A DNA stretch of 64,000 nt, from assembly GCA_049287025.1 (NCBI GenBank), contig JBAQFA010000009.1, positions 24,802 to 88,801 of the forward strand, written 5' to 3'. The translations under genes and the position numbers were made by a program. Source of the stretch: Candidatus Magasanikiibacteriota bacterium. Its GTDB lineage: Bacteria > Patescibacteriota > Patescibacteriia > Magasanikbacterales > UBA922. Each line of letters opens with the position of its first letter. The first letter of the stretch is position 1. The notes beneath the pieces were generated by a model, which saw nothing but the letters and a program-made list of their open reading frames with translations, was not told where the DNA came from and did no database searches. Below are positions 2,145 to 60,698 of this stretch, in pieces.

Positions 2145-3527
2145 TTAGATATTATCTACGTATAATCTTTGTTTGATCGCTTCAATTTCTTGTTTTAGTT
2201 TGGCGTCATTTTCAATCTCGGTTTTTATTTTGGTATGAGCGTGCATGGCTGTAGTGTGGTCGCGTCCGCCGAGTTCATTACCAATCGCCGGGTAAGACAT
2301 TTTTAATTCTTCACGTAGTAAGAACATAATAATTTGTCTGGGATTGGAAAGTCTTTTTTCTCGGCTCTTACCAGCAATATCATCAATCGCCACGTCATAA
2401 AATTCTGATACCACACTAGTTAACTCTTTTGGAGTAAGAGAGCGTTTCATACTTTGCGCTTCAAAACTTGATAAGACAGATTTTACGCTTTCTTTAGTTG
2501 GTTCAGTATTTTTTAATTCATGAAAAGCAATAATTTTATTTAGCGCGCCTTCTAGTTCCCGGATATTACTTTGGACAGTGGCCGCGATTAAATTTATCAG
2601 TTCATCGGACAAATTATATTTTTTCTCCTGAGCTTTTGATTTCAAAATGGCTGATCTCGTTTCCAAATCTGGCGCTGCGATATCTGCAATCATCCCCCAT
2701 TCAAATCTAGAGCGTAAACGATCTTCCAAAGCTGGGATGGCTTTTGGTGGGCGATCAGAAGTAAGCACGACTTGTTTGCCTTGTTGATGTAGTTCGTTGA
2801 AAGTGTGAAAAAATTCCTCCTGAGTTTGTTCTTTGCCACCAATGAATTGAATGTCGTCAATCAAGAGTAAATCAACATTGCGATAGCGATCTTTAAATTC
2901 TTTGGCTCGGCCTTCTTTTACTGAAGTGACAAATTCATTAGTAAATTTTTCTGAAGAAACATAGAGAATTTTTGTTTGCGGATTATTTTCTAGCATTTTG
3001 TGGCCAATCGCTTGCAGAAGATGAGTCTTGCCTAATCCGACCCCACCATAGATAAATAATGGGTTGTAGGCTTCTCCTGGTCGGTTAGCAGAGGCTTGGG
3101 CAGCAGCATGAGCGAGTTCATTGCCCTTACCAACAATAAAAGTGTCAAAAGTATATTTTATATTTAGACCAAATTTACTACCCAAAGATTGATTTTTTGG
3201 CGCCGAATAAATTGGCGTGGCTGCACTAGATACATTTGGTTCAGTGGACATGGTACATTCTTTTTCTTCAATCAATTTGGAATTTTCTACTTTATATTCT
3301 ACTTTTTTTACTGGCTTACCTGTCACTCGTTCCAAAATTTTTATAATTTCTGGATGATATTTTTTTTCCAGCCAGCTCTTGGTAAAAGTATTAGGCACAC
3401 AAATAATTACCTGACCAACTTCATATTGGCCAATACCAGTATTGCGGAACCAAGTAGTAAAATTAGCTTTGGAAACTTTTAATTCAAATTCAGCGAGAAC
3501 AGCTTGCCAGATTTCGTGATTTGTCAT
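2145..3527 (-). CDS. dnaA: Chromosomal replication initiator DnaA
   Basis: 460 aa with Walker A GGVGLGKTHL and Walker B LLLIDDIQF. The C-terminal DNA-binding helix-turn-helix region contains GGRDHTTAMHA. Confidence 0.97.
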   Translation of the reverse strand: MTNHEIWQAVLAEFELKVSKANFTTWFRNTGIGQYEVGQVIICVPNTFTKSWLEKKYHPEIIKILERVTGKPVKKVEYKVENSKLIEEKECTMSTEPNVSSAATPIYSAPKNQSLGSKFGLNIKYTFDTFIVGKGNELAHAAAQASANRPGEAYNPLFIYGGVGLGKTHLLQAIGHKMLENNPQTKILYVSSEKFTNEFVTSVKEGRAKEFKDRYRNVDLLLIDDIQFIGGKEQTQEEFFHTFNELHQQGKQVVLTSDRPPKAIPALEDRLRSRFEWGMIADIAAPDLETRSAILKSKAQEKKYNLSDELINLIAATVQSNIRELEGALNKIIAFHELKNTEPTKESVKSVLSSFEAQSMKRSLTPKELTSVVSEFYDVAIDDIAGKSREKRLSNPRQIIMFLLREELKMSYPAIGNELGGRDHTTAMHAHTKIKTEIENDAKLKQEIEAIKQRLYVDNI

Positions 3528-4052: not shown

Positions 4053-4071
4053 TGTTATACTTTAACTATAC

Positions 4072-4140
4072 GGATATCCAGATAATCCAGATTTGCAGAT
4101 ACTGCGATCCGTCAATCTGGATTATCAGTATATCTGGATA
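4072..4140. repeat. Imperfect inverted repeat upstream of rnpA
   Basis: ggatatccagataatccagatt (4072-4093) faces aatctggattatcagtatatctggata (4114-4140). It may be an operator or an RNA hairpin. Confidence 0.5.
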
Positions 4141-4157
4141 GTAAAATCGCCCAAAAT

Positions 4158-5997: not shown

Positions 5998-6471
5998 TTG
6001 TATATGAAAAATAAAATCCACCTAACAATTTATATTGTAATCGGTGGATTTTTTTTATTGTTGGATCAGTTGTTAAAATATTTGGCGCGGACTAATTCTG
6101 ATTTTAGTTTTTATCTTTGGAAAAATTGGTTGGGCTGGGAATATTTCCCCAATCCTGGCATTGCTTTTTCTTTACCCGTACCAAATTGGTTAGTAGTTAT
6201 TTTTACGCCAATAATTTTATTAGGATTATTTATTTGGATAAGACGAACACATAACACATATCACATATCACATATCACAAGACAGTTATCACTATTTTTT
6301 ATTATTGCTGGGGCGGTTTCAAATTACATTGATCGCGTATTATTCGGTGTCACTATAGATTATATTCGTATTCTTACTGGGGTAATAAATTTGGCGGATG
6401 TGATGATTGTGGTGGGGGTAGGGTTGTTATTGTTGGATGAAAGATTGAAGAAAATTAATATTAAACTTTAA
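5998..6471 (+). CDS. lspA: Lipoprotein signal peptidase (signal peptidase II)
   Basis: It has four TM segments and the motifs NPGIAFS and IDYI...NLADVMI. The start is probably the ATG at 6004. Confidence 0.85.
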   Translation: MYMKNKIHLTIYIVIGGFFLLLDQLLKYLARTNSDFSFYLWKNWLGWEYFPNPGIAFSLPVPNWLVVIFTPIILLGLFIWIRRTHNTYHISHITRQLSLFFIIAGAVSNYIDRVLFGVTIDYIRILTGVINLADVMIVVGVGLLLLDERLKKINIKL

Positions 6472-6475
6472 TTAT

Positions 6476-7015
6476 ATGATAGAAAATAGTAAATTATTTT
6501 TTTTGATTTTAATTCTGTTTTTAGTTGGGGTTGGCTGCGTAAGTGTTCAGCAGAATACAATAGGTGAAGGTTCTGGTGGTAAAATGGATAACGAGATTGC
6601 AGAGACTAATGCACAGCTAGGAGGAAAAGAAGAGAGTGTTTCTTCTCTTCAAGATTATTCGTATGGTTGTAAAAAACGTTTAGGTGATAATAGTCATATG
6701 AATGAACAAACAGGAAAATGTGAGTGTGATGATGGACATGTCTTCAGTATCGAAGAACCTATTAAGTGTATATCAGCGAATGATTATTGCATATTTTTGA
6801 AAGGAAAGAATTCTATTTCTAATCTAAATGGAGAAAAATATGATTGTATGTGTAAGGATGGTTATAAGATAGATTTAAGTTTGTCACCGAAGTGTATTAT
6901 AGACTGTTCCCCAATAAATGGTGTGATTGCCACAGAAGATTTGTGTGCTTGTCCTAATAATTATGACTATGACTATGGTGTAAGCAAATGTATGCCGATT
7001 GATGATTTAAAATAG
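6476..7015 (+). CDS. Cys-rich secreted lipoprotein, function unknown
   Basis: It has a signal peptide with the lipobox LVGVGC and repeated CxC / C...C spacing. I recognise no family. Confidence 0.55.
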   Translation: MIENSKLFFLILILFLVGVGCVSVQQNTIGEGSGGKMDNEIAETNAQLGGKEESVSSLQDYSYGCKKRLGDNSHMNEQTGKCECDDGHVFSIEEPIKCISANDYCIFLKGKNSISNLNGEKYDCMCKDGYKIDLSLSPKCIIDCSPINGVIATEDLCACPNNYDYDYGVSKCMPIDDLK

Positions 7016-7040
7016 GTTAATTGAGAAATTAAAAAATAAA

Positions 7041-7065
7041 ATCACCTAGGTTCAGGTGATTTTTG
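7041..7065 (+). terminator. Intrinsic terminator
   Basis: The stem atcacct/aggtgat is followed by tttt. Confidence 0.7.
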
Positions 7066-7155
7066 TTATCTGATATCTGCACAATGTGGTATAATAAATG
7101 TAATTTTTAATGTGGGCGAACGCAACTTGAAAAGGGATTCTTCGCTTCGCTCAGA

Positions 7156-8688
7156 ATGACAGACGATATGTTTACCAAAATAAATTCCGCGGCCACTCTG
7201 GGTTTGGAATGTGAACCAATAATTGTTGAAACAGATATTTCCCCGACTTTTCAAGGTTTCCAGATTATTGGGTTACCTGATATGGCGATCCAGGAAGCTA
7301 AAGAAAGAATTAGAACAGTATGGCGAAACAGTGGTCTTACTTTTCCCAATGGCCATCGCATTTTAGTTAATTTGGCGCCAGCGGATGTTCGCAAAGAAGG
7401 CTCGGCGTTTGATTTACCCATTGCCGTGGGTATGTTTACAGCCAAAGAAGGATTAGAAATAAATTTATCTGATTGTCTTTTTATTGGGGAATTGGCTCTA
7501 GATGGGAGTCTGCGTCATACCAATGGAATACTTCCTTTAGCAATTCACGCCAAAGATCGGGGTTATAAAAAAATCTTTGTGCCAGCGGTGAATGCGCGTG
7601 AAGCATCTCTCATAAAAGAAATTGAAGTTTATCCGGTAGAAAATTTTCAACAAATGATTGCGCATTTATTAGGTAATGAATTGATAATTAAACAAGAACC
7701 ACAACCTTTGACTGATTTATTTGTAGTTAGAGAAATAGAAATGGATATGGCTTATATCAAAGGCCAGGAATTTGCCAAGCGCGCTTTGGAAGTGGCCGCG
7801 AGTGGAGCACACAATATTTTATTAAATGGTCCGCCAGGGTCAGGCAAAACTTTATTGGCTAGAAGTTTACCATCAATTTTACCGCCCATGACAGAAGAGG
7901 AAGCCATTGAAGTGACCAAGATTTATTCGGTAGCGGGATTGTTGCCCCATGATCAGCCATTAATTACTGAACGGCCGTTTCGTTCACCGCATCATAGTGC
8001 GAGCGCCATGTCTCTGGTTGGTGGAGGAAAATTTCCTCGGCCAGGAGAAATTTCTTTGGCTCACCGCGGAGTTTTATTTCTTGATGAGTTTACCGAGTTT
8101 CCTAGAATTGTTTTGGAAAATTTACGCCAGCCGTTAGAAGATGGTTTTGTGACCATTGCTCGCGTGCAAAGTACGATTTCTTATCCCGCGCAATTTACTT
8201 TGGTGGCCTCACAAAATCCTTGTCCATGTGGTTATGCCACAGATCCAGATAAGCGGTGTATATGTAGCCCAATGCAAGTAGCCAATTATCAAAAGAAAAT
8301 TAGTGGGCCAATGCTTGATCGAATTGATCTTCATGTAGAAGTACCGCGCGTGGAATTTGAAAAGTTATCCAAAGATAGTTTAGCCGAGTCTTCGGCAGAA
8401 ATTCGCCTGCGAGTAGAAGAAGCCCGTGATCGACAAACTGTAAGGTTTAAAAATTGTTCAGCCAAGACAAATAGTGAAATGAAAAATAAAGAAATAAAAG
8501 AATTTTGTAAATTGGATGAACAATCACTTGATTTATTGCGTCAAGCAGTTCAGCATATGCATTTGTCAGCGCGGAGTTATCATCGGATTTTAAAATTAGC
8601 GCGAACGATTGCTGACCTGTCTAAAAGTGATAATATTTTACAAACGCATGTGGCCGAGGCTCTGCAATATCGGGCAAAAGTTGATTGA
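7156..8688 (+). CDS. comM: YifB/ComM-family Mg-chelatase-like AAA+ protein
   Basis: 510 aa with an N-terminal Lon-protease-like domain. Walker A is GPPGSGKT and Walker B is VLFLDEF. The C-terminal Mg-chelatase subunit ChlI-like region is present. The real start may be the ATG at 7168. Confidence 0.9.
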   Translation: MTDDMFTKINSAATLGLECEPIIVETDISPTFQGFQIIGLPDMAIQEAKERIRTVWRNSGLTFPNGHRILVNLAPADVRKEGSAFDLPIAVGMFTAKEGLEINLSDCLFIGELALDGSLRHTNGILPLAIHAKDRGYKKIFVPAVNAREASLIKEIEVYPVENFQQMIAHLLGNELIIKQEPQPLTDLFVVREIEMDMAYIKGQEFAKRALEVAASGAHNILLNGPPGSGKTLLARSLPSILPPMTEEEAIEVTKIYSVAGLLPHDQPLITERPFRSPHHSASAMSLVGGGKFPRPGEISLAHRGVLFLDEFTEFPRIVLENLRQPLEDGFVTIARVQSTISYPAQFTLVASQNPCPCGYATDPDKRCICSPMQVANYQKKISGPMLDRIDLHVEVPRVEFEKLSKDSLAESSAEIRLRVEEARDRQTVRFKNCSAKTNSEMKNKEIKEFCKLDEQSLDLLRQAVQHMHLSARSYHRILKLARTIADLSKSDNILQTHVAEALQYRAKVD

Positions 8689-8757
8689 CACATATCATGA
8701 ATCACATAACACATAACAAAAACACCAACTTGTCAGTTGGTGTTTGTTTGTAAATTA

Positions 8758-12500: not shown

Positions 12501-12616
12501 TGTATGTCCGATAGACTTGTTGTCTGTCGTTTTGGTATATAAGGCAACTTTGCTTTGTTGTTGTGTGTGCTTGAGTGAACAACCATAATCCTTGGATGGG
12601 AGGTGAGACAGGGGAA

Positions 12617-13588
12617 ATGGCAAAGGATCTTTCGGAGAGAAAATTTCGAAGCACCGTGCGGTATGTGCGACGTCTATTGGGGGGTGGGACTGGTATTGTG
12701 ACTGCTCAACAGCTTCAGAAGGCTGGAAAACGAGCTCGCGGTCCTTTCTTTGACCCCAGAGACCATGGTCTGGTTCGTCCGTTCTTGGAGCGTGGAGCCG
12801 AAGAAGGACTCTGGGTGCTTGAGAACGGCGGTGGTCGGGCTGTCGTACCTGATGGTGTGTGGGAACAGTGGGATAGTCGTGGCGAGAGACGGCGTGAGGA
12901 ACGTCAGTCACAAGTTACGGCTCAAGCAGGAACCCGGCCAGCTTCAGTGCTGGCATCACTAGAGGAGGTCTCTATGACCGACGGTACGAAGAAGGGGGTG
13001 GGCGTATCCCCGAAAAATCCTATCTGGGTTTGGCTTCGGGCCAAGAAGGGTAGGTTGGGAGAGCTCATCGAGCTGTTCCAGGGGGTCCATGATGGTGCTC
13101 CGGTTCTCGCCAAGAAGGGTGGGGCTTTGAGTTTCCATTTTGCCCGCCCGCACCTAGTTCGGGGCCTGCAGAAGCTCGGGATGGAGCAGATCGACGATGG
13201 GTCAAAGATCCTGGCCACGGTCTTCTCCTACCTCGCCACGCCTGAGCAGGGGGTATTCGAGCGTGTGGGTTCTGGTGGGTACCCCCGCTACAAGCTCGGG
13301 CCGAAAGGGCAGAAGCTCTTGACCGAGGTCAGGAGCAGGGGCTCTGAGCCCATGCCACCGCCCGTTCCGTCCACGTCACCGACCGCTGCCCCCAGCCCGG
13401 GTGACCCGTTCGCCGAGGAGGAGGCCGCTCTCGTGGCCAAGCTCGAGGCGGTCCGTGCCAAACGCCGGCGCTTCATCGTGGTCGAGGACCTCGTGGTCAA
13501 GGCCATGAAGAAGGCCGGCATCGAGGGGACAGAGCAAGTTGAGTTCCTCAAGGCGCTCGTCAAAAAGCTCGGGGGTTCCTCCGAGTAG
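12617..13588 (+). CDS. GC-rich cassette ORF 1, unknown function (ORFan)
   Basis: This is a long ORF in a compositionally foreign block; the 60-nt line starting at 13321 contains 42 G+C. GGGAGGTGA lies upstream of the ATG at 12617, and the GTG at 12575 offered by the ORF track is unlikely. The protein has a Pro-rich linker and a C-terminal helical region. I recognise no family. Confidence 0.6.
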   Translation: MAKDLSERKFRSTVRYVRRLLGGGTGIVTAQQLQKAGKRARGPFFDPRDHGLVRPFLERGAEEGLWVLENGGGRAVVPDGVWEQWDSRGERRREERQSQVTAQAGTRPASVLASLEEVSMTDGTKKGVGVSPKNPIWVWLRAKKGRLGELIELFQGVHDGAPVLAKKGGALSFHFARPHLVRGLQKLGMEQIDDGSKILATVFSYLATPEQGVFERVGSGGYPRYKLGPKGQKLLTEVRSRGSEPMPPPVPSTSPTAAPSPGDPFAEEEAALVAKLEAVRAKRRRFIVVEDLVVKAMKKAGIEGTEQVEFLKALVKKLGGSSE

Positions 13589-21780: not shown

Positions 21781-21806
21781 AAAAAGCGGGCTTAAACCCG
21801 CTTTTT
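21781..21806. terminator. Bidirectional intrinsic terminator (recA / ychF)
   Basis: aaaaagcgggcttaaacccgcttttt is a perfect GC stem flanked by an A-run and a T-run. Confidence 0.8.
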
Positions 21807-21836
21807 GTTATGTGATATGTGTCTCGTGTTATGTGT

Positions 21837-22913
21837 TTAAGTCGCCACATGGAAATATACCGTATCACCATCCTTAACAATATAATCTTTTCCTTCCAAT
21901 CTTAATTTTCCAGAAGTTTTGATTCCACTCCAACCACCATGTTCAACAAAATCTTTCCAATCACACACATCAGCTTTGATATAACCTTTTATAAAATCAG
22001 TATGAATCACCCCAGCCGCTTCTGGACCTTTGGCGCCAGACTTCACTGTCCAAGCTCTAGTTTCTGGTTCGCCACTGGTTAAAAATGTGACAAGGTTTAG
22101 TAATTTATAACTTTCAGTAATCAATTTATCCAAACCACTTTTTTCCATACCTAGCTCTTTCATATATTCTTTTAATTCTTCGCCATTCAGATCAGCTAGT
22201 TCTGCTTCCAATTTAGCACAGACAATAATTTGTGGAATACCTTCTTCTATCTGCGGAATTTGGGCATTCAAATTTGAAGTTTCATCTACATTTATTACAT
22301 AGAGCATGGGTTTCATAGTGAGCAAGTGCATGTCTTTCATTATGAGCATCTCATCTTCAGTGTATTCAAGCGCGCGCGCTGGTTTGCCAGCTTCTAGTTG
22401 TTTAAAAACTTTTTCTAAAACATCAATTTCTTTTTGCGCATCTTTCAAAGCTGTCCCCTTGGCGTTCTTTTTCGTTTTATCTAGGCGCTTACTCACAGTT
22501 TGCCAGTCGGCTAGGACTAATTCAAGATTTATTACCCCAGCATCTTCAGTTGGATCTACTTTGCCCGCCACGTGAATAATATTGTTATCAGTAAAATTTC
22601 TTACTACCTGAACAATAGCATCAGTTTCCCGAATGTGAGACAAAAATTGATTACCTAGGCCTTCACCTTCACTAGCGCCTTTGACTAGACCAGCAATATC
22701 ATAAAATTCTATGGCTGTTGGGATAATTTTTTTTGATTTAGAAACTTGAGCCAGTTTTTCCAACCGTTCATCTGGTACCTCAACAATCCCGATATTTGGT
22801 TCAATCGTACAAAAAGGATAATTTTGAGCATCAGCTTGTTTGCTACGAGTGAGAGCGTTGAATAGAGTAGATTTTCCTACATTGGGTAGGCCGACGATTC
22901 CAAGTGATAACAT
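21837..22913 (-). CDS. ychF: Ribosome-binding ATPase YchF
   Basis: The G1 motif is GIVGLPNVGKSTLFNALT. The protein is 358 aa with a C-terminal TGS-like domain. Confidence 0.95.
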   Translation of the reverse strand: MLSLGIVGLPNVGKSTLFNALTRSKQADAQNYPFCTIEPNIGIVEVPDERLEKLAQVSKSKKIIPTAIEFYDIAGLVKGASEGEGLGNQFLSHIRETDAIVQVVRNFTDNNIIHVAGKVDPTEDAGVINLELVLADWQTVSKRLDKTKKNAKGTALKDAQKEIDVLEKVFKQLEAGKPARALEYTEDEMLIMKDMHLLTMKPMLYVINVDETSNLNAQIPQIEEGIPQIIVCAKLEAELADLNGEELKEYMKELGMEKSGLDKLITESYKLLNLVTFLTSGEPETRAWTVKSGAKGPEAAGVIHTDFIKGYIKADVCDWKDFVEHGGWSGIKTSGKLRLEGKDYIVKDGDTVYFHVAT

Positions 22914-29515: not shown

Positions 29516-30103
29516 ATGCGTACAATGTTAGTCGCGTTGCTGTCGCTGGTGCTGTTTTCAAGTATTGCTCAGGCCGAAACCTACAACACCAGGTTGCTCC
29601 TGCACGGTCACAAGACCGTCGGTGAGGGATTCGGAGTCGCGGGTTGGGTGATTGCGCCCAACATCACAAGCGTACCGAACAAGTGGGTAACCCTCGTCGG
29701 CCCGTGCTACGATGGACAGGGGTGGGGTGTAGAATTGTTGGCAGGAGCGGTTGTTTCTGGTGGCGAGAGCAAGTTTCTTGTAGATGTCAGAATAACGTTC
29801 ACTCCAAAATTCTTCGGCATCCCCTTGAACACCTGGCACAACTTCCAGTGGATTCGAACCGGAGGCTCTGGCACGGGTTACTGGTATGGACAGGTTGACT
29901 GGGTGTTGCCACTCGGACTTGGACTTCTCGGTACAGAAACCGAGAACACGTTCAACGTGAGTGGCAATGACTGGTCAGTCGCGCCTCACGTCGTGATCTC
30001 TTTCGGTGATCACTTCGCGCTAGTGTTCGCTCCACAAGCTCATTTCAATGCACGTGGCTACACTGGCACGCAAGCGTGGGTTCGTACGGTCGTGAGTCAC
30101 TAG
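29516..30103 (+). CDS. GC-rich secreted protein, unknown function (cassette 2)
   Basis: AAGGAGG lies 5 nt upstream of the ATG. The Sec signal peptide is MRTMLVALLSLVLFSSIAQA/ET. The mature part is Gly/Trp/Val-rich with an alternating, beta-like pattern. The 60-nt line starting at 29581 contains 36 G+C. Confidence 0.7.
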   Translation: MRTMLVALLSLVLFSSIAQAETYNTRLLLHGHKTVGEGFGVAGWVIAPNITSVPNKWVTLVGPCYDGQGWGVELLAGAVVSGGESKFLVDVRITFTPKFFGIPLNTWHNFQWIRTGGSGTGYWYGQVDWVLPLGLGLLGTETENTFNVSGNDWSVAPHVVISFGDHFALVFAPQAHFNARGYTGTQAWVRTVVSH

Positions 30104-31164: not shown

Positions 31165-31193
31165 TTGACAGTTATTGTAAAATGTGGAATAAT
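31165..31193 (+). promoter_or_regulatory. Promoter of GC-rich cassette 3 with an operator-like palindrome just downstream
   Basis: TTGACA (31165-31170), a 17-nt spacer, then TGgAATAAT (-10 at 31188-31193). GTTCTAGAAT-gaaa-ATTCTGGAAC follows at 31198-31221 with a 9/10 inverted repeat. Confidence 0.55.
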
Positions 31194-31301
31194 AAGTAGT
31201 TCTAGAATGAAAATTCTGGAACCAAATTGATTGGGAGTGTCTGAACACTCTGTATATATGGTCTGGCGTTCTTTACACACGTGCTAGTTGGAGGGAACAT
31301 C

Positions 31302-31727
31302 ATGAAAAGGTGCATCAAGGCTCCGGGAATTAACGCTTTCAGTGGCGAGGGTGAAGTGGGGAAGTTAGAAGATGTCCCCGGAAAACAAGGTTGCCTTCCA
31401 TTTGATCCTAGTCCGGCCGTAGGGGGTTGGATGAAGGACGACAATTGTAAAGTGGAGGCACCACCAGAGGGGTGCACGCTCGAAGTGCCCGAAACGATCC
31501 TATGCCCCAATGGAAAAAACATCCCAGCTGGAAAGTACAAGGTGGGAAAACTGCCTGATGACAAGATTCTGCATCGCTATCATGATCACGTTCTGCCCCT
31601 CACCGATGAGAAGGGGGTCACCCGGCATTATTGCATTGAAAGTTCCGGTAGGCATGTCGACTGGTCGGGATGCGTCTGCATCTTGATTCGTGTGGAGACG
31701 CGCGAAGAGCGACTGCTGATTCAGTAG
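31302..31727 (+). CDS. GC-rich Cys-rich protein, unknown function (cassette 3)
   Basis: GGAGGG lies 6 nt upstream of the ATG at 31302, and the GTG at 31281 from the ORF track is rejected. 141 aa with 8 Cys. I recognise no family. Confidence 0.65.
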   Translation: MKRCIKAPGINAFSGEGEVGKLEDVPGKQGCLPFDPSPAVGGWMKDDNCKVEAPPEGCTLEVPETILCPNGKNIPAGKYKVGKLPDDKILHRYHDHVLPLTDEKGVTRHYCIESSGRHVDWSGCVCILIRVETREERLLIQ

Positions 31728-31792: not shown

Positions 31793-31818
31793 GCGTAGGC
31801 CGGCGCGTGAGCTCGGCA
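31793..31818 (+). repeat. Conserved cassette 3' motif GCGTAGGCCGGCGCGTGAGCTCGGCA (REP-like)
   Basis: Near-identical 26-mers occur at 31793-31818, 33336-33361, 34176-34201, 34799-34824 and on the minus strand at 47677-47702. Each lies within 100 nt downstream of a GC-rich ORF stop. Confidence 0.85.
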
Positions 31819-31850
31819 CCGTGCGCCCGACACATTCAAAACGGGCAAAT

Positions 31851-31928: not shown

Positions 31929-32732
31929 TTATTTTTTCTTTTTACTAGTTTTAGCAAGCGGTGTAGCTGTAATCCACGCCAGTTCAAAAATCGCTTTTAA
32001 AATATTAGATAAAGCCGTGCTTTCTATAATTATGCCAATAGGGATTGGTTTCTTGAATAAAGCCATCATTACTTTATTATCATAAATATTAATTTCACCA
32101 CCTAAATCTTTGATAGTTGGTACTTGTTCGGGTTTTATCCAGCGATAATTAATATATTTTTTTGATCCTTGATAATGTTTCATCCAATCTCTTCCTTCGG
32201 GTGTATCTAAAACCAAAACGCGTTCAGAAATTTTTCTTTTACTACGTTCGCGGGTATATTCTTTGCCCCATTTAAAAAGATTAAACTCTGGTGTATACCA
32301 AGCTTGCAAATCCAAGACTGATAAAATTTCTGATTTGGCTTCTAAAGTTTCCCAATAAATATTTTTGGCACCCTCAACACCTTCTTGAAATCTAACGCTG
32401 GGTTTTTCGGCCACGGTATAGAGTAAATAAAAATCTGGCAATTGTGATTCTAATTCTTTTTCTTTTCTTTCCCAAGTATTAATTTTTGATTTTACAAAAT
32501 GTTTTAAATTTTTGGGATCTTTGGCTACAAATTGAATGCGTTTCTTTTGTCCAGAAGAACGATTGACTAGGCCAAACCAACCAAGTTTTTCTAGGGCATG
32601 ATAACAAAGGGTGTGACCAATGCCAGCTTTGCGGGCAATGGCGCTGGCGCCAGAAGGTCCAAGTTGTAAAAGGGCAATATAGACTTTGGCTTCTGTTTCT
32701 TCAAAGCCAATGCTTTTAAGAATTTCTAACAT
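31929..32732 (-). CDS. TrmB-family wHTH transcriptional regulator (paralog 4)
   Basis: IGFEETEAKVYIALLQLGPSGASAIARKAGIGHTLCYHALEKLGWFGLV. The C-terminus LKAIFELAWITATPL...KKKK parallels that of paralog 3. Confidence 0.85.
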   Translation of the reverse strand: MLEILKSIGFEETEAKVYIALLQLGPSGASAIARKAGIGHTLCYHALEKLGWFGLVNRSSGQKKRIQFVAKDPKNLKHFVKSKINTWERKEKELESQLPDFYLLYTVAEKPSVRFQEGVEGAKNIYWETLEAKSEILSVLDLQAWYTPEFNLFKWGKEYTRERSKRKISERVLVLDTPEGRDWMKHYQGSKKYINYRWIKPEQVPTIKDLGGEINIYDNKVMMALFKKPIPIGIIIESTALSNILKAIFELAWITATPLAKTSKKKK

Positions 32733-32875
32733 AGAATTTTATTTTAGAATTTATTAGATATATTTATTATAACACAAAAATAAATTTATTTCAATATCAA
32801 ATTGAAAATAATTACTAGATTGTAAATTTTTATTTAAAATAAGCCAAAAATGGTTTATTTATTTTAAATTGAGTA

Positions 32876-32904
32876 TTGACATACTCCATAATCTAATGCA
32901 TAAT
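32876..32904 (+). promoter_or_regulatory. Promoter of GC-rich cassette 4
   Basis: TTGACA (32876-32881), a 17-nt spacer, then CATAAT (32899-32904). The architecture matches the minus-strand promoter at 48721-48749. Confidence 0.55.
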
Positions 32905-32906
32905 TA

Positions 32907-32946
32907 CTTGTTCTGACGATCGAGGATTGGCCTTGAGAGTTGGACG
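32907..32946 (+). promoter_or_regulatory. Conserved cassette 5' leader (CTTGTTCTGACGATCGAGGAT..CCTTGAGAGTTGGACG)
   Basis: It matches 48718-48679 (minus strand) at 37 of 40 positions and is closely similar to 48294-48258 (minus strand). It contains the hairpin TCGAGG-N5-CCT(C/T)GA. The C-to-T change keeps a G:U pair, and the loops differ. Confidence 0.7.
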
Positions 32947-32963: not shown

Positions 32964-33311
32964 ATGGCCGAAGAGCACGAGGTACGGTGTGATAACTGCG
33001 CCCACCACCACGTAGGAAGCGGGGGTTGTTTCGGCAAAGTAGAGAGCAGGTTCCCCATGTACGATTTTCATAGAGGAGTAAAATACTGCATGTGGGGGGG
33101 GACCCCCAGCCGAATTGTGACCTTTTCTAGATTGAAGGGGTGCCCGCTGGGTGTGGAGTTTGTGCCACTCCGCTGGTGTGGTACCTGTGGCAACTTGGTC
33201 CAAACGGACCAAGGGTGTGCTCACCGGTTGGAGGGTTGCGAGGACCCCAGCTACAGGTGCTGGAAGATTCACCCCGACCTCAAGGAGGGTATGAGACAAC
33301 AGTACCTCTAG
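32964..33311 (+). CDS. GC-rich Cys/His-rich protein, unknown function (cassette 4, ORF a)
   Basis: GGGAGGG lies 4 nt upstream of the ATG at 32964. 115 aa with CDNCAHHH, CGTCG and other Cys pairs that suggest metal binding. I recognise no family. Confidence 0.65.
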   Translation: MAEEHEVRCDNCAHHHVGSGGCFGKVESRFPMYDFHRGVKYCMWGGTPSRIVTFSRLKGCPLGVEFVPLRWCGTCGNLVQTDQGCAHRLEGCEDPSYRCWKIHPDLKEGMRQQYL

Positions 33312-33335
33312 ACTACCCACCTATGGGTTAAACAG

Positions 33336-33447
33336 GCGTAGGCCGACGCGTGAGCTCGGCATTCCATTTTTGTCCAAAATATTATTTTTTGCATAAAGAT
33401 GGAGGCGCTCTTTAAAAACAAACAATCCGCACTGGTGGTGTTGGTTG
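33336..33447 (+). repeat. Inter-cassette junction repeat, copy A (~112 nt)
   Basis: The 3' motif is followed by the AT hairpin ccatttttgtcc...gcataaagatgg (33364-33402). CGCTCTTTAAAAACAAACAA and CACTGGTGGTGTTGGTTG follow that. It aligns along its full length with 34176-34285. Confidence 0.8.
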
Positions 33448-33480
33448 AAGAGATATAGTTCTGACTTAACGGAGGCTAGA

Positions 33481-34149
33481 ATGGGATACGACCCAAACCA
33501 AATGGCCCAAAGGTATTTGAGGGTCGACTGGGCCGACGTGAAGGGCTATGCCGCTTACGCGGTAGAGTCCACGTTCGGGGACCAAGTACCACCACCCATA
33601 AAAAGGAGACTCGAGGTATTGGACGGTATAAGGGACAAGGAAGGTCCCGAAGCCGCCTGTCTCGAGGCAGCAAGGATCGAATGTGAATGCCAAGTCGTTC
33701 AGGAGAAAAGAACTGAACGACGGCAGTGGAGAACGGGAGACGACCCATACAAATATGGGTCTTCGTTCTCTTCGAAGTTTGTCATCATAGATTATAATGG
33801 TGAAAAAAGATTCTACATCGCTCATAATTGGCATATGCAGGCCGTTTTCGTTTTCGCCAAAATTCTGGTGGATAGAAATAAAAAAGTCGATTTTCACGTT
33901 CTGGGTGGGGGGTGGTTCCGTGCTAATCATCCCCTAACTGTTGGCGGTTTTAGCGGTGATTTTAGCTCGTTCAAAATCTCTGACTTGAGTGAGGCGTTGG
34001 GTGGGCTTGAATTCACCGACAAAGATCCCGGTGATTGGCGCACGAATTCCATGCGTGCCACCCATATTGATTGGGCTTTTATCGAAAAAGCCCGTGACTC
34101 CTCTGAGAAATACAGGGAGGTATGGAAACGGATCTTTGAGGAGGAATAA
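33481..34149 (+). CDS. Unknown-function protein (cassette 4, ORF b)
   Basis: AGTTCTGAC (33457-33465) precedes GGAGG, which lies 5 nt upstream of the ATG at 33481. The TTG at 33445 from the ORF track is rejected. 222 aa. I recognise no family. Confidence 0.6.
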   Translation: MGYDPNQMAQRYLRVDWADVKGYAAYAVESTFGDQVPPPIKRRLEVLDGIRDKEGPEAACLEAARIECECQVVQEKRTERRQWRTGDDPYKYGSSFSSKFVIIDYNGEKRFYIAHNWHMQAVFVFAKILVDRNKKVDFHVLGGGWFRANHPLTVGGFSGDFSSFKISDLSEALGGLEFTDKDPGDWRTNSMRATHIDWAFIEKARDSSEKYREVWKRIFEEE

Positions 34150-34175
34150 TAGACGTAATCTGATTTCGTCAATCA

Positions 34176-34285
34176 GCGTAGGCCGGCGCGTTAGCTCGGC
34201 ATTCCATCTTTGTATAAAAATAATTTTATATAAAGATGGTTGTCGCTCTTTAAAAACAAACAACTAACACTGGTGGTGTTGGTTG
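34176..34285 (+). repeat. Inter-cassette junction repeat, copy B (~110 nt)
   Basis: See copy A. The hairpin ccatctttgtat...atataaagatgg lies at 34204-34239. Confidence 0.8.
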
Positions 34286-34339
34286 GTGATATATAAAAAG
34301 GACTGGTGGCGGACACAACCCTTGGAGAAGGAGTTGAAA

Positions 34340-34759
34340 ATGAGTACTGTCAAGATACTCATCATCGACGACGGTGATGAGAAAGTCGATCGACTGAAAG
34401 GTTATGATCGACTTGGCCACCTCCATGGTGTGGAGGTGGTACGCCGATGGAATTTTAATTCGGCTCTTAAGGAAGGGCCGTACGCGTTTAATGATTTGGA
34501 GCAAACAAAGTTTGACGTGATTATTTTGGACTTTACACTGCCAATGGACAGATTCGGTCATGAGATCTTGGATAAAATTAGACACAGTCCCAGGTTTATT
34601 ATTAACGAAAGAACGGTAGTAATTGGCATTTCCACAGAGTGGAAACGTCTATTACAATATGATTTCGGTTTGAATCTTGCGATCTACAAGGAGGAAACGA
34701 TGGCTGACGAACTGGAAACAGCCATCAAGTCCTTCGTCGCCACTGGCAAAGTCAAATAA
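34340..34759 (+). CDS. Stand-alone CheY-like receiver (REC) domain protein (cassette 4, ORF c)
   Basis: AAGGAG lies 6 nt upstream of the ATG at 34340. KILIIDDG, the putative phospho-acceptor in DVIILDFTLP, and VVIGIST fit a receiver fold. There is no output domain, and no kinase lies in the window. Confidence 0.65.
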   Translation: MSTVKILIIDDGDEKVDRLKGYDRLGHLHGVEVVRRWNFNSALKEGPYAFNDLEQTKFDVIILDFTLPMDRFGHEILDKIRHSPRFIINERTVVIGISTEWKRLLQYDFGLNLAIYKEETMADELETAIKSFVATGKVK

Positions 34760-34798: not shown

Positions 34799-34824
34799 AC
34801 GTAGGCCGGCGCGTGAGCTCGGCA
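34799..34824 (+). repeat. Cassette 3' motif copy (ACGTAGGCCGGCGCGTGAGCTCGGCA), end of the array
   Basis: It matches the 26-mer consensus at 25 of 26 positions. It is preceded by AGACGAAGCTTGGGATTTGTCACCCA, which resembles the sequence preceding the copies at 31793 and 34176. Confidence 0.8.
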
Positions 34825-39149: not shown

Positions 39150-39279
39150 TTACCCAAACTTGACAATTAGCCTAGAATAATATATAATCCGAGCAATCTT
39201 AAATTATGGTTCTCAGCTGTAATTTAGGAAGGCTCTCAAATAATTAAAATTTATAATTTAAAATTGAAAATTTACAAGT

Positions 39280-47676: not shown

Positions 47677-47702
47677 TGCCGAGCTCACGCGCCGGCCTAC
47701 GC
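47677..47702 (-). repeat. Cassette 3' motif copy (minus strand)
   Basis: The reverse complement GCGTAGGCCGGCGCGTGAGCTCGGCA is an exact match to the copy at 31793. On the minus strand it is followed by the terminator hairpin atccc...gggat and a T-run (about 47615-47652). Confidence 0.85.
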
Positions 47703-47784
47703 CTATTTAATCCATAGATGGAGTGCCACTTTTGAATGTGTGTGGCGCACAGTGAAGAGGTGTGGAACAAGCCGGCCATGTTTA

Positions 47785-48228
47785 TCAGATTTTGAATTCC
47801 TGATAAATCCTGGCCAGCACCTTTGCAGCCGTATGAACTCGTTCCAGGATGTTCGTGAGTGCGTCGGAGAATTCGTGCCACTCCCAGACAGTCTCTTCCC
47901 CGTCACTTTTCAGGTTGTAGCTACCCATCATGGCGGCAAACACTTGGTAGGCGTTAACGCTTCGGCCTGTTTTTTCCCCACGCAGTATACTGCCGTGTAT
48001 GTGTTGCGCGTAGTTTTCAAGCCACTCAACCAAATCTTCGTTCCCCTCTATTTTCTGTAGAAGCTGGTCTGCGATTTGATCAACGCTTTCCTTACAACAC
48101 TCTTCATCTGCGTCAAGTCGTAAGTACAGGCAAACGATGGCGATCAGATTGGGTGGAAGGTCATAGCATCCCTCAGGATAAGTCCTGAGCATAGGCTCGC
48201 CTTCTCCCCAGCTAGAAAGGTAGAGCAT
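47785..48228 (-). CDS. Unknown-function acidic helical protein (cassette 5, ORF b)
   Basis: AGGAGG lies 6 nt upstream of the ATG at 48228. 147 aa. I recognise no family. Confidence 0.6.
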   Translation of the reverse strand: MLYLSSWGEGEPMLRTYPEGCYDLPPNLIAIVCLYLRLDADEECCKESVDQIADQLLQKIEGNEDLVEWLENYAQHIHGSILRGEKTGRSVNAYQVFAAMMGSYNLKSDGEETVWEWHEFSDALTNILERVHTAAKVLARIYQEFKI

Positions 48229-48257
48229 CACTCACCTCCTTGTTTACAAAGAACGTT

Positions 48258-48294
48258 GTCCAACTTTCGAGGTACATCCTCGATTGTCAGAACT
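48258..48294 (-). promoter_or_regulatory. Conserved cassette 5' leader copy (AGTTCTGACAATCGAGGATGTACCTCGAAAGTTGGACA)
   Basis: This is the third copy of the leader, at an internal (intercistronic) position. The hairpin is TCGAGG-atgta-CCTCGA. Confidence 0.7.
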
Positions 48295-48385
48295 TCCTCC
48301 ATCTTTATACAAAAAATATTTTGGACAAAGATGGAAGGCCCGGCGCTTTGTTGACGCGCGGCCGGGCGAAGCGTGGCGGAGTGTG
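48295..48385 (-). repeat. Inter-cassette junction, short version
   Basis: On the minus strand, the GC hairpin gcccggc...gccgggc occupies the place of the 3' motif. The AT hairpin ccatctttgtccaaaatattttttgtataaagatgg (48334-48299) follows and is nearly identical to 33364-33402. It then runs straight into AGTTCTGAC. Confidence 0.7.
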
Positions 48386-48652
48386 TTACTCCTTGGGTGT
48401 GGAGAGGTGGAGAAAGTGGCGGATTTTTTGCCAGAAGATTTTGTTGGCTTCTATTCCGGCTTCCTTTTTCGCTCGAGCCTCCCTGATGCCCTTGTTCCTT
48501 TCGAGGCCACACTGGGGGCAGTAGGACATGTGAGGTAAGAGTTCATTTCCACACAGGCATTGTGGAAGAGCAACTCTCTTTACACCACAATATTGACAGA
48601 ACTCTGAGTATCCCACGTGACTACACATCGGGCACAGCCTACTCTCAAGCAT
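48386..48652 (-). CDS. Double zinc-ribbon protein (cassette 5, ORF a)
   Basis: GGAGG lies 5 nt upstream of the ATG at 48652, and the TTG at 48685 from the ORF track would fall inside the conserved leader. CPMCSH...CQYCG and CLCG...CPQCG form two Cys4 ribbons. The C-terminal tail is basic. Confidence 0.65.
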   Translation of the reverse strand: MLESRLCPMCSHVGYSEFCQYCGVKRVALPQCLCGNELLPHMSYCPQCGLERNKGIREARAKKEAGIEANKIFWQKIRHFLHLSTPKE

Positions 48653-48678: not shown

Positions 48679-48718
48679 CGTCCAACTTTCGAGGCCCATC
48701 CTCGATCGTCAGAACAAG
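48679..48718 (-). promoter_or_regulatory. Conserved cassette 5' leader copy
   Basis: The reverse complement is CTTGTTCTGACGATCGAGGATGGGCCTCGAAAGTTGGACG. Confidence 0.7.
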
Positions 48719-48974: not shown

Positions 48975-49763
48975 ATGGAAAAAAATAATTTAGAAAAATT
49001 AATAGATTTGGGTCTACAAGAAAATGAAGCCAAAATATATTTGGCTTTGTTGGAATTGGGAAAAGGCAATGTGACCGAAATTAGTCGGCGCGCAGGATTG
49101 AACCGGACGACGGGTTATGATATTTTGGAACGTCTTGGTTTACATGGTATGGTGAACCGCGCCAGAGTGGGTAGTAAAAAAATTATTTATGTGGCCGAAC
49201 CGCCATCACATTTGCGTCAGTACTTGGAAGACAAAAAACGCGCCATGGAAAGACGGATGGAAGAATTAAATGATTTGTTGCCAGATTTGCAATCACTTTA
49301 TAAAACTGATATTAAACCAGTTATAAAATTTGCCGAAGGGAAAAGTGAAATGCAAAAATTGTATTTGAATGTTTTGGATGCGAAGAGTGAAGTTTATTCA
49401 ATTCTTAATTTAAAAGGTTATGCCGAAGTTTTTGATGAACTGGGTGCTTATCAATCCAAAGAACGACATAAAAAAGGCATAAAAGAAAAAGTTTTGGCTA
49501 TAAAAAATGATACCGCTCTGTGGTGGTATAATAAAACTTATAAAAATAAAACTGCCAAGGATAAAAAGTTAACCGAATATCGCTGGCTAGAAGATGCGGA
49601 AAAGTATTCTACCGCCGGAGAAGTAAATATTTTTGATGATAAAGTAATTGGTGTATTATCCAAACCAAGTGAAAATGTGGCATTTGAAATTCAATCACAG
49701 ACATTTGCGGATTTTTTGAAATTAGTTTTTGAAATGGCGTGGAAGAATAGTGAACAAAAATAA
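48975..49763 (+). CDS. TrmB-family wHTH transcriptional regulator (paralog 5)
   Basis: LGLQENEAKIYLALLELGKGNVTEISRRAGLNRTTGYDILERLGLHGMV. It is homologous to paralogs 3 and 4 and divergent from cassette 5. Confidence 0.85.
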   Translation: MEKNNLEKLIDLGLQENEAKIYLALLELGKGNVTEISRRAGLNRTTGYDILERLGLHGMVNRARVGSKKIIYVAEPPSHLRQYLEDKKRAMERRMEELNDLLPDLQSLYKTDIKPVIKFAEGKSEMQKLYLNVLDAKSEVYSILNLKGYAEVFDELGAYQSKERHKKGIKEKVLAIKNDTALWWYNKTYKNKTAKDKKLTEYRWLEDAEKYSTAGEVNIFDDKVIGVLSKPSENVAFEIQSQTFADFLKLVFEMAWKNSEQK

Positions 49764-58804: not shown

Positions 58805-60442
58805 ATGACAACCACACAAGATTTGTACAAAATGATCGGAACTGCACAACAGCAGGAAGAAGATAAGGATGACGTTTCAAAATATCGATACGTTATTTAT
58901 GCTCGAAAATCTACAGATGATAAAGAAAAACAAATCAGATCATTAGGTGATCAAATTAAAGAATGTAAGGATTATGCTGAAAGAAATGGACTTAGATGTT
59001 TACCGAAACCAATAACGGAGTCAGAGTCTGCCAAGGAACCAGACATAAGGCCAGAGTTTAAGAAATTAATTGATGACATTAAAAAAGCTAAATATGATGG
59101 TATTTTGGCTTGGCATCCAGACCGTTTGGCCAGAAATATGAAGGATGCTGGAGAGATAATAGATCTGTTGGATAAAAAGATAGTGAAAGACCTAAAATTC
59201 GTAACATTTACGTTTGAGAACAATACAATGGGTAAAATGTTGTTAGGGATGGCTTTCGTGCTGTCTAAGCAGTATTCTGACGCTTTAAGTGATAATGTAA
59301 AACGAGGAACAAGTAGAAGTATTGAAGAAGGTAGATGGTTGAACAAAGCTAAACATGGTTATTATAAAGATCGTAATCAAATACTGCATCCAGATGGTAG
59401 ATTTTTTAATCTGATTGAGAATATTTTTAGGATGAGAATAGATAATAAAAGTTTGGATGATATAGCTGATTATTTGAATGAAAATAGATATTGTTGTGCC
59501 CCACCTTCTAAGAATGAAGCTGACCGTAGCCCATTTCAAATGACCAAACAGATCGTCTCTAAAATTGTGAGAGACCCATTTTACACTGGCATTCTTAAGT
59601 ATGGAGAAAACAAGGTTGATTTAACTGAAATTTATGACTTTACTCCTGCTGTAAGTGTGGATGATTTTCTGAAAATAAACAACTTTTCTGATATTGAAAA
59701 AGCTCTAAAATTAACTGGAAAAATTTATAAAGACAACGCAATCAAGGCAGATTTGATGAGAGGAATGATAATTTGTGGTGAATGTGATGGAAGTATGACA
59801 TCTGGAATTACTCCTAAAAAAACAAAAAATGGTAAAACTAATTATTTTTATTACAGATGTGATAACCCTGTTTGTAAAAATAAAGGTAAGTCTATAAGGG
59901 CAAAAGTAATTATTGACTTTGCCTGTCAATATTTGGAAAAAAACAAATTTACCTCTCATTCTATATATGGGCATTATATCCAAGAAATGAAAAAAGTTGT
60001 AATGGAAAAAGAGAGGTCTCTCATACAAAAAATTCGTTCATTGACGGAGACCAGAGTACACAAAAAAAATCAATTTGAAAAGACAAAAAAATCTCTTATA
60101 CAAGAGACTGACGAAGACATCAAGGGTTTTTTTAAGGAAGATTTGAAACAATTAGAAAAGGACATCAATAATTTAGAAACCGAAATAGATGAATTGAAAG
60201 ATGAGAAAGAAAGAAATAATAGCGTCACGCTGACTTACTCAGAATACCTTGAACTGTTCAATAATTTAGCTGAGCGTATTAAAAAAATAGGCGTTATGGA
60301 AGACCTAAATTTTATAATGAAAAAAATCTTCTTGAACTTTACTATAAAAGAGGGAAAAGTGGCTCTATATACACTAAACTCCCCATTCGGGGAGTTCGTG
60401 AAAGACCGTATTGTCTTGACATGTCGGGGTGAAAGGACTTGA
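58805..60442 (+). CDS. Large serine recombinase (resolvase/invertase N-domain + recombinase domain + zinc ribbon + coiled coil)
   Basis: The catalytic-Ser region is YVIYARKSTDDKEKQIRSLGDQ. WHPDRLARN is present. The Cys4 cluster is CGECDG...YYRCDNPVC. The C-terminal coiled coil is long. Confidence 0.85.
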   Translation: MTTTQDLYKMIGTAQQQEEDKDDVSKYRYVIYARKSTDDKEKQIRSLGDQIKECKDYAERNGLRCLPKPITESESAKEPDIRPEFKKLIDDIKKAKYDGILAWHPDRLARNMKDAGEIIDLLDKKIVKDLKFVTFTFENNTMGKMLLGMAFVLSKQYSDALSDNVKRGTSRSIEEGRWLNKAKHGYYKDRNQILHPDGRFFNLIENIFRMRIDNKSLDDIADYLNENRYCCAPPSKNEADRSPFQMTKQIVSKIVRDPFYTGILKYGENKVDLTEIYDFTPAVSVDDFLKINNFSDIEKALKLTGKIYKDNAIKADLMRGMIICGECDGSMTSGITPKKTKNGKTNYFYYRCDNPVCKNKGKSIRAKVIIDFACQYLEKNKFTSHSIYGHYIQEMKKVVMEKERSLIQKIRSLTETRVHKKNQFEKTKKSLIQETDEDIKGFFKEDLKQLEKDINNLETEIDELKDEKERNNSVTLTYSEYLELFNNLAERIKKIGVMEDLNFIMKKIFLNFTIKEGKVALYTLNSPFGEFVKDRIVLTCRGERT

Positions 60443-60497
60443 ACCTTCGGCCTCCTGGTCCCAAACCAGGCGCTCTAGCCAACTGAGCTACACCCCG
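60424..60497 (-). tRNA. tRNA-Pro (TGG)
   Basis: The reverse complement reads cggggtg-ta-gctcagttggctagagc-g-cctgg-ttTGGga-ccagg-...gaaggttcaagtccttt-caccccg-a. Confidence 0.9.
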
Positions 60498-60541
60498 TTA
60501 AAGTTATAAAGTTGAAAGTTTTAAAGTTCAAAAAAATAACT

Positions 60542-60616
60542 TGGTGCCGAGGGCCAGGATCGAACTGGCGACACGTGGATTTTCAGTCCACTGCTCTACC
60601 ACTGAGCTACCTCGGC
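60542..60616 (-). tRNA. tRNA-Phe (GAA), CCA encoded
   Basis: The reverse complement reads gccgagg-ta-gctcagtggtagagc-a-gtgga-ctGAAaa-tccac-gtgtc-gccagttcgatcctggc-cctcggc-acca. Confidence 0.9.
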
Positions 60617-60624
60617 TTGTTTTG

Positions 60625-60698
60625 TGGACCTGAGGAGATTCGAACTCCTGACCCCCTGCTTGCAAAGCAGGTGCTCTAGCCAGCTGAGCTACAGGCCC
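60625..60698 (-). tRNA. tRNA-Ala (TGC)
   Basis: The reverse complement reads gggcctg-ta-gctcagctggctagagc-a-cctgc-ttTGCaa-gcagg-...caggagttcgaatctcct-caggtcc-a, with G3:U70. Confidence 0.9.

Follow-up and report, generated by a model that had tools for sequence, protein, structure and literature searches.

Stem-loops located at the 5' terminus stabilize mRNAs, and RppH of B. subtilis requires at least two unpaired 5' nucleotides, as described in section 7 of PMC3997798 and its refs 94 and 95. Examples of stabilizing 5' stem-loops include those of ompA and papA in E. coli and those of the aprE/ermC type in B. subtilis. Other described arrangements that bear a resemblance to the locus studied here are the attI/attC arrays of integrons, the intercistronic RNase III signals of phage T7 type, and the REP/BIME palindromes. 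The mRNA leaders and RNA processing signals of uncultivated candidate-phyla bacteria are almost entirely uncharacterized, and the arrangement described below was not found reported for Patescibacteria in the literature. Here we describe a compact leader motif with predicted protected 5' ends from a 64,000-nt stretch of DNA that is referred to as the window. The element is a new, clade-restricted hairpin module of 5' UTRs that is absent from Rfam and forms part of an unusual arrangement of gene cassettes.

Genomic setting of the GC-rich cassettes

The window is chromosomal DNA of a Candidatus Magasanikbacteria genome (about 35% GC) and carries dnaA, dnaN, recA, polA, and a fused G6PD/6PGD gene, as well as a PBP1A-type gene, the name of which is taken from a gene of a related contig that has Transgly/Transpeptidase domains and matches it by 85% at the nucleotide level. 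Five genes of the TrmB family (PF01978), related to TrmB and TrmBL2 of P. furiosus, are also present, and each of them has neighboring genes with a GC content of about 50%. The window further contains five GC-rich gene sets (GC 0.43-0.60; Table 1), each adjoining a TrmB-family gene of host-like composition. At third codon positions, GC3 is 0.49-0.68 in the cassette genes and 0.25-0.29 in the host genes. The high GC content of the cassettes may reflect a foreign origin or a recombination hot spot with biased gene conversion.

The cassette proteins are orphans. Searches with Pfam, PHROGs, and PADLOC gave nothing useful for these proteins, and the 222-aa protein of the c3 operon matched itself alone among 1.84 billion representatives. 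The homolog search with the 115-aa protein returned no match, itself included; this gene is evidently missed by gene callers. The Cys-rich gene of 110-115 aa found behind the leader is conserved at the protein level in two species; in public annotations it is uncalled or a gene is called on the opposite strand, and it is absent from an index of 5.8 billion proteins.

Several other features are present in these genomes (Table 1). Small GIY-YIG nuclease genes (83-86 aa) recur beside TrmB-family genes in related contigs. A gene for a large serine recombinase abuts a cluster of three tRNA genes, and this junction may be the edge of an integrated element. A different family of intergenic repeats with TGTTATGTGATATGTG-like units (families D16, I13, and I16) is found at several positions. 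Finally, the dnaA start codon is about 530 nt away from a 40-nt inverted repeat (6-nt spacer), which is close to the likely replication origin.

Copies and fold of the leader

The 36-nt consensus GTTCTGAC-N-ATCGAGG-N5-CCTYGA-N-AGTTGGAC is matched by three full copies in the window (w1, w2, and w3; Table 1) with 0 mismatches each, and has 0 matches in 100 dinucleotide shuffles of the window. These copies are the same three that were listed in the original prediction, the coordinates of which take in one to three flanking bases. A truncated copy listed there does exist as sequence (AGTTCTGAC, a remnant or a chance occurrence) but is weak evidence by itself, because GTTCTGAC is expected about once by chance (five occurrences were counted in the window) and is also found in an unrelated context at 41716, inside polA. 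Copy w3 is located 24 nt upstream of the start of the 147-aa gene.

Table 1. Positions of the leader copies and of other features in the window; positions in related loci are preceded by the name of the locus.
Feature	Position	Strand	Remarks
Leader copy w1	32910-32945	+	Predicted 5' end of c3 operon message; inner stem with G.U from a C-to-T change
Leader copy w2	48680-48715	-	Predicted 5' end of c4 operon message
Leader copy w3	48258-48293	-	Intercistronic; 5 nt past AU-rich hairpin
AGTTCTGAC	33457-33465	+	First 9 nt of the leader alone; 16 nt upstream of start codon of 222-aa gene
TTGACA-17-CATAAT	32876-32904	+	Promoter-like, 11/12 sigma-70; ends 5 nt before w1
TTGACA-17-TACAAT	48749-48721	-	Promoter-like, 11/12 sigma-70; ends 5 nt before w2
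TAAGCCA-N4-TGGTTTA	32840-32857		Between two divergent -35 boxes; AGCC core invariant in all aligned loci
TrmB3	31929-32732	-	TrmB-family regulator, divergent from w1
TrmB4	48975-49763	+	TrmB-family regulator, divergent from w2
10-bp hairpin GUUCUAGAAU/AUUCUGGAAC	31199-31222	+	c2 locus, past promoter 31165-31193; one G.U; differs from leader
TSS-proximal hairpin CGAUAGAC-UUGUU-GUCUGUCG	12509-12529	+	Past TTGACT-17-TATAAA, before GC-rich gene 12575-13588
c3 operon (GC-rich gene set)	32964-34759	+	Genes of 115, 222, and 139 aa, all GC-rich; GNRA-loop hairpin after each
c4 operon (GC-rich gene set)	47785-48652	-	88-aa zinc-ribbon gene and 147-aa gene, both GC-rich
Other GC-rich gene sets	12575-13588; 29516-30103; 31302-31727
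Cys-rich gene of 110-115 aa	32964-33311; L005 between 9268 and 10001
3' module GCGUAGGCCGRCGCGUKAGCUCGGCA	33336-33361, 31793-31818, 34176-34201, 34799-34824; 47677-47702	+; -	26 nt; GC hairpin with GUGA loop
AU-rich intercistronic hairpin	48299-48334; 33364-33402, ~34203-34241; L019 4673-4708, 5041-5076	-; +;	13-16 bp
Two further short UTR modules	33406-33457 and 34244-34295; 31821-31847 and 47724-47750		Order differs by operon
rpsT (S20) promoter and hairpin	39160-39235
Large serine recombinase gene	58805-60442		Abuts tRNA genes (60423-60698)
GIY-YIG nuclease genes	L005 13775-14035; L009 9358-9609; L021 5621-5878		Beside TrmB-family genes
TGTTATGTGATATGTG-like units	695-721; 7060-7086; 21802-21837; 6246-8722
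40-nt inverted repeat	4061-4146		dnaA start codon at 3527, minus strand

As RNA, each copy folds into a single two-tier hairpin that consists of an outer stem of 6 bp (UCUGAC/GUUGGA, with tandem U.G/G.U), a purine 2x2 internal loop, an inner stem of 6 bp (UCGAGG/CCUYGA), and a 5-nt loop. The words GTTCTGAC and GTTGGAC, which had been described as flanking words, are therefore not separate elements: they pair with each other to form the outer stem of this hairpin. The statement that the C-to-T change keeps the pairing and that the loop varies among copies was correct, since a G.U pair is retained; the first two loop bases (AU) are conserved. When the full 5' UTRs were folded, the leader hairpin formed autonomously in 6 of 7 contexts. 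In the minimum-energy fold of the whole UTR of w1, CCUU pairs with the GGGAGGG ribosome site instead.

The folding energy of the leader RNA ranges from -13.9 to -16.5 kcal/mol (z -2.4 to -2.8), whereas the antisense RNA is much weaker (-2.9 to -11.8 kcal/mol). The sense RNA exceeds the antisense RNA in all six leader variants and in six unrelated hairpins at equivalent sites. As single-stranded DNA, the leader reaches -2.8 to -6.2 kcal/mol, with w1 no better than shuffles, and the bottom strand reaches -0.8 to -5.5 kcal/mol with loss of the outer stem. Because each imperfection of the palindrome is a G.U pair on the sense strand, and because the antisense and DNA folds are much weaker, the leader structure is most likely that of a sense-strand RNA. 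The original prediction of a selected structure is supported, although the strand asymmetry would also fit a hairpin of top-strand single-stranded DNA.

Promoters and hairpins at equivalent positions

Promoter-like sequences end shortly before w1 and w2 (Table 1), and for these two copies the leader begins at the 5' end of the transcript as predicted from the promoter consensus. Upstream of w3, a scan found no promoter-like site. Both positions had been anticipated, the one at the start of the message and the one between cistrons. An internal promoter candidate before w3, TTGTCC-13-TATAAA, was rejected for its wrong spacing. From +1 to +45, the cassette promoters have folding values of -16.3, -14.5, and -12.0, compared with a median of -3.7 for the 65 promoter-like sites of the window, and their initial transcribed regions are among the most structured of this set.

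Hairpins unrelated to the leader are found at an equal distance from the -10 box in the TrmB3-orthologue loci L012 and L014, in the locus L016 of a more distant TrmB3 homolog, and in the c2 and c5 loci of the window. All of these hairpins favor the sense strand, and the one in L014 has the same two-tier shape as the leader. The c2 hairpin (-12 kcal/mol, z = -5.7) corresponds to a related palindrome that had been placed one base away, and it differs between the window and the related genome UBA11710 by a change from U-A to C-G. These comparisons indicate that structure rather than sequence is conserved at orthologous positions. In addition, the gene for ribosomal protein S20 (rpsT) has a perfect 12/12 promoter in front, followed immediately by a 15-bp hairpin (-16 kcal/mol), which is possibly an autoregulatory or stabilizing leader of S20.

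Conservation among related lineages

Scans of sequence collections and protein-anchored contigs recovered the leader in only four close Magasanikbacteria lineages, namely the window, UBA11710 (c3 and c4 loci), Ga01723xx (L003, L004, and L011), and L015. A relaxed motif matched just one other genome among 185,579 species genomes and one further lineage in the JGI metagenomes. The strict motif had no matches in viral contigs, and collections of phage and plasmid DNA likewise gave no match. In Rfam 15, the leader was unmatched at E up to 1, and only tRNAs reached the gathering score in the window. The related contigs have one or two leaders each, compared with three in the window.

Pairwise identity among the leaders is 30-36/36 (83-100%) for all pairs, whereas the 40 nt downstream are at random level (4-16/40), as is the upstream flank of w3. 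Among the seven distinct copies, 91 of 91 cells are paired, and the three stem changes (G-C to G.U, A-U to G.U, and U.G to U-A) all preserve pairing. Considered alone, these three one-sided changes have a chance probability of about 0.04-0.125. Variable columns are more frequent at unpaired positions (9/14) than at paired positions (3/26; Fisher p=0.001). The covariation signature is nevertheless weak: one-sided G.U changes keep the pairing in three cases, but a two-sided compensatory change was not found in any of the seven copies. A covariance-model search, which had been proposed for collecting covariation, was run over 24 loci with filters off and returned near-identical copies but no divergent members, such that no covariation could be collected from it. 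Although strict covariation is absent, the pattern of conservation is in keeping with a constrained hairpin.

Gene replacement behind the leader and other cassette modules

The window and UBA11710 show conserved synteny. Their TrmB4 proteins share 97% identity, yet the gene content of c4 is wholly different. In c4, the two sequences are homologous up to the final base of the leader and again at the AU-rich hairpin (36/36), a further short module, the GC hairpin, and the terminator. Similarly, the leader is followed by an unrelated gene in L004/L011, the TrmB3 of which is 91% identical to that of the window. The Cys-rich gene of c3 (c3a) is 48% identical between the window and UBA11710, and the window has two extra cistrons that are bounded by repeated 3' modules. 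The original prediction stated that the leader is attached to the cassette and not to the promoter. This statement was not supported, as the leader stays with the TrmB gene and the promoter in the four lineages while the gene behind it is replaced, and in one relative (L012) a homologous gene is preceded by a different leader. Because close relatives carry different genes behind it, the leader belongs to the slot border and behaves as a separate 36-nt module of this border, not of a particular gene. The cassette genes also evolve or are replaced much faster than their neighbors.

The leader is accompanied by other repeated modules, all of which are confined to the sense strand of the cassettes (blastn-short). 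A GC hairpin with a GUGA loop trails almost every cassette cistron, and one of its pairs varies among the copies (G.U, A-U, or G-C). This module is preceded by a small hairpin that is variable yet complementary (CCUAU/AUAGG, CUUGU/ACAAG, and CCUGCC/GGUAGG). Long AU-rich hairpins, including the one of 13 bp upstream of w3, lie between cistrons; they look like processing signals for a double-strand RNase (RNase III-type), and one is identical between two species. The intercistronic order is a 3' hairpin, the long AU hairpin, and then a 5' hairpin. Two more short modules are found in the cassette UTRs, and CGCTCTTTAAAAA, which is a piece of the one at 33406-33457/34244-34295, lies directly after the leader in UBA11710.

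A proposed protective hairpin at the 5' end of the message

Based on the repeats, their fold and strand asymmetry, their place relative to the promoter consensus, the conservation pattern, and the edges of the modules, we infer that the leader is a 5'-terminal protective RNA hairpin, i.e., a message-stabilizing module of the 5' UTR, with a probability of about one half. At two loci, a strong sigma-70-type promoter is predicted to start transcription at a distance of 0-2 nt from the first paired base, which would give a message that opens with the hairpin and has almost no single-stranded 5' tail. Such a hairpin may block 5'-end-dependent decay, including RppH-type removal of pyrophosphate, the 5' exonuclease RNase J, and 5'-sensing endonucleases, and the blocked decay would stabilize the cassette messages. 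The Shine-Dalgarno sequence is located 8-20 nt downstream, outside the hairpin. Within the polycistronic RNA, cleavage may occur at or near the long AU-rich hairpin upstream of w3; w3 would then protect the 5' end of the distal cistron, and the GUGA-loop GC hairpins would protect the new 3' ends. Such 5' protection would agree with the known substrate requirements of RppH and RNase J (PMC3997798). A related Magasanikbacteria contig carries a gene for RNase Y.

This explanation is limited by the lack of a two-sided compensatory change and by two other observations. First, a purely structural role does not account for the near-identical sequence (30-36/36) at paralogous loci with diverged promoters and downstream UTRs. 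A near-identical leader amid flanks at random level points to sequence-specific recognition or recent copying. Second, the c4 operon of the related species has the AU hairpins but lacks the internal leader copy, which indicates that a 5' hairpin is not required at every cistron.

Alternative explanations

The sharp boundaries of the leader may also be explained by recombination. Under this hypothesis, which is possible but on balance unlikely, the leader, the 3' GC hairpin, and the AU hairpin would provide a DNA site or short homology for the insertion, excision, and swapping of promoterless cassettes, in an integron-like manner without an integron integrase, and RNA folding would be secondary. 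The 36-nt island of high identity with random sequence downstream, and upstream as well in the case of w3, is consistent with such a joint. The same is true for the breaks in c4 homology at the leader end and the 3' modules despite the near-identical TrmB4, for the unrelated gene behind the leader in L004/L011, and for the two extra window cistrons with repeated modules at their edges. Moreover, w2 and w3 are direct repeats that flank the 88-aa gene, as after a single-crossover insertion of a one-copy circle. The layout of divergent gene, promoter, site, and ORF-hairpin units parallels intI-Pc-attI-(ORF-attC)n, and the deviating GC3 and the orphan proteins of the cassettes are in line with this hypothesis as well. 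However, no tyrosine recombinase or Phage_integrase domain was found by Pfam among the window ORFs of at least 140 aa, and the only recombinase is the large serine recombinase beside the tRNA genes, 10 kb away. The single-stranded DNA fold is weak and is worse on the bottom strand, and no circular intermediates or population polymorphisms were seen. The orthologous c3a genes of the window and UBA11710 have an equally unalignable spacer after the leader, suggesting that the sharp 3' edge partly reflects fast evolution outside the leader.

With regard to the likeness to integrons raised in the original prediction, GTTGGAC/GTTAGAC does fit the core-site consensus GTTRRRY, but this applies to one end only, as RYYYAAC is not matched by the partner GTTCTGAC. 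The opposite strand likewise matches at a single end, with GTCCAAC conforming to RYYYAAC and GTCAGAAC departing from GTTRRRY. The other parts of the likeness are missing: the window has no integrase among its ORFs of at least 140 aa, a 36-nt element with a 5-nt loop is outside the size range of attC and differs from it in shape, and the bottom strand folds poorly. A broader version of the recombination hypothesis, in which the leader, the AU hairpin, and the GUGA-loop hairpin would serve as joints in a Magasanikbacteria cassette system that resembles integrons but lacks an integrase, is more doubtful still. In such a system, each slot would have its own TrmB-family guard, and promoterless, GC-rich, fast-evolving orphan genes would be shuffled by site-specific or short-homology recombination.

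Sequence-specific RNA control is a comparably doubtful explanation, according to which the hairpin would be bound by a protein or RNA, or would toggle with the ribosome binding site, and thereby control the translation of the cassette. In the inner stem, a Shine-Dalgarno-like GAGGA is paired to an anti-SD-like CCUC, and sequence conservation among paralogous loci is very high, extending to the purine 2x2 internal loop and to the AU with which the 5-nt loop starts. The inner stem of w1 is weakened by its G.U pair, and it is in this UTR that the ribosome site is paired in the minimum-energy fold. Nevertheless, the hairpin forms in place of the alternative pairing in 6 of 7 contexts, other loci use unrelated hairpins without SD/anti-SD content, and no candidate binding partner was found.

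The position of the leader next to TrmB-family genes raises the question of a DNA operator. TrmBL1 binds a TGM motif of 6-N5-6 geometry. The inner palindrome of the leader, TCGAGG-N5-CCTCGA, is a perfect 6-N5-6 palindrome with a variable spacer in 5 of 7 copies, lies within +1 to +36 of promoters divergent from TrmB genes, and could be bound at the transcription start by the divergent TrmB-family repressor; the neighboring proteins are bona fide relatives of TrmB/TrmBL2. However, the leader is unlikely to be the TrmB operator because the leader type does not track the neighboring TrmB paralog. TrmB3 and TrmB4, which share 37% identity and differ in their recognition helices, adjoin the same leader, whereas P0004, which is 86% identical to TrmB3 of UBA11710 and has the same recognition helix, adjoins an unrelated hairpin. 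Furthermore, w3 has no promoter, and the outer stem is palindromic only through G.U pairs, which are mismatches in duplex DNA. A better operator candidate is the TAAGCCA motif, which is present between the -35 boxes in all loci and is likely a binding site of the TrmB-family regulators. We regard the operator hypothesis as very improbable.

Finally, a neutral remnant without a function of its own, left by recent duplication or by gene conversion among paralogous loci, would account for nearly identical copies that are limited to four close lineages, but it is the least credible explanation, as both flanks are at random level while the 36 nt remain 83-100% identical, substitutions avoid paired columns and preserve pairing, and the copies are strictly on the sense strand.

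Implications

The slots in which the leader occurs repeat a common plan, with a host-like TrmB regulator and a strong promoter followed by GC-rich orphan genes that are exchanged between genomes with flanking genes of 85-97% identity. Even if the hairpins are mere RNA stability modules, they provide covariance-model handles for finding cassette slots in metagenomes. If the hairpin modules are also recombination joints, they would represent a new way to organize a flexible gene pool in very small genomes.

Comparison with known systems

The TGM operator of TrmBL1 resembles the leader in the geometry of the inner palindrome and in the overlap with the transcription start. It differs in that the leader type is not tied to the TrmB paralog and in that pairing of the outer arms is possible only in RNA. 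The arrays of attI and attC sites in integrons are similar in that a divergent gene, a promoter, and a site are followed by promoterless ORFs, each with a hairpin-forming repeat behind it, and in that gene content varies between close relatives with breakpoints at the repeats. However, attC sites are 57-141 nt long, compared with 36 nt for the leader, which lacks the R''/L''-L'/R' organization. The neighbor of the leader is a TrmB-family regulator rather than IntI or another tyrosine recombinase. Furthermore, the bottom strand of attC is the recombinogenic one, whereas the leader folds best on the sense (top) strand, as RNA.

The intercistronic RNase III signals of phage T7 type are long, near-perfect hairpins between cistrons, flanked by smaller hairpins at the future RNA ends. 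This likeness concerns the neighboring AU-rich hairpin, not the 36-nt element, and there is no phage similarity here. REP/BIME palindromes are also short, imperfect repeats in transcribed intergenic regions that form mosaics with other short modules and are able to protect mRNA segments, as proposed for the leader. Unlike these palindromes, the leader has few copies in the 64 kb of the window and in the related contigs, all of which are at GC-rich cassette operons and at 5' rather than 3' ends, and the scanned ORFs of the window did not include a RAYT-type transposase.

The stabilizing 5' stem-loops of ompA, papA, and the aprE/ermC type differ from the leader in that one 36-nt sequence is reused here at several operons and once between cistrons, and in the two-tier form of the leader with its purine 2x2 internal loop. 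The host of the leader is also an uncultivated Magasanikbacteria lineage. Its similarities to these stem-loops are that the hairpin lies 0-3 nt from the predicted 5' end, that it precedes the ribosome binding site and is distinct from it, and that it is a portable module of which the structure, not the sequence, is kept at orthologous positions.
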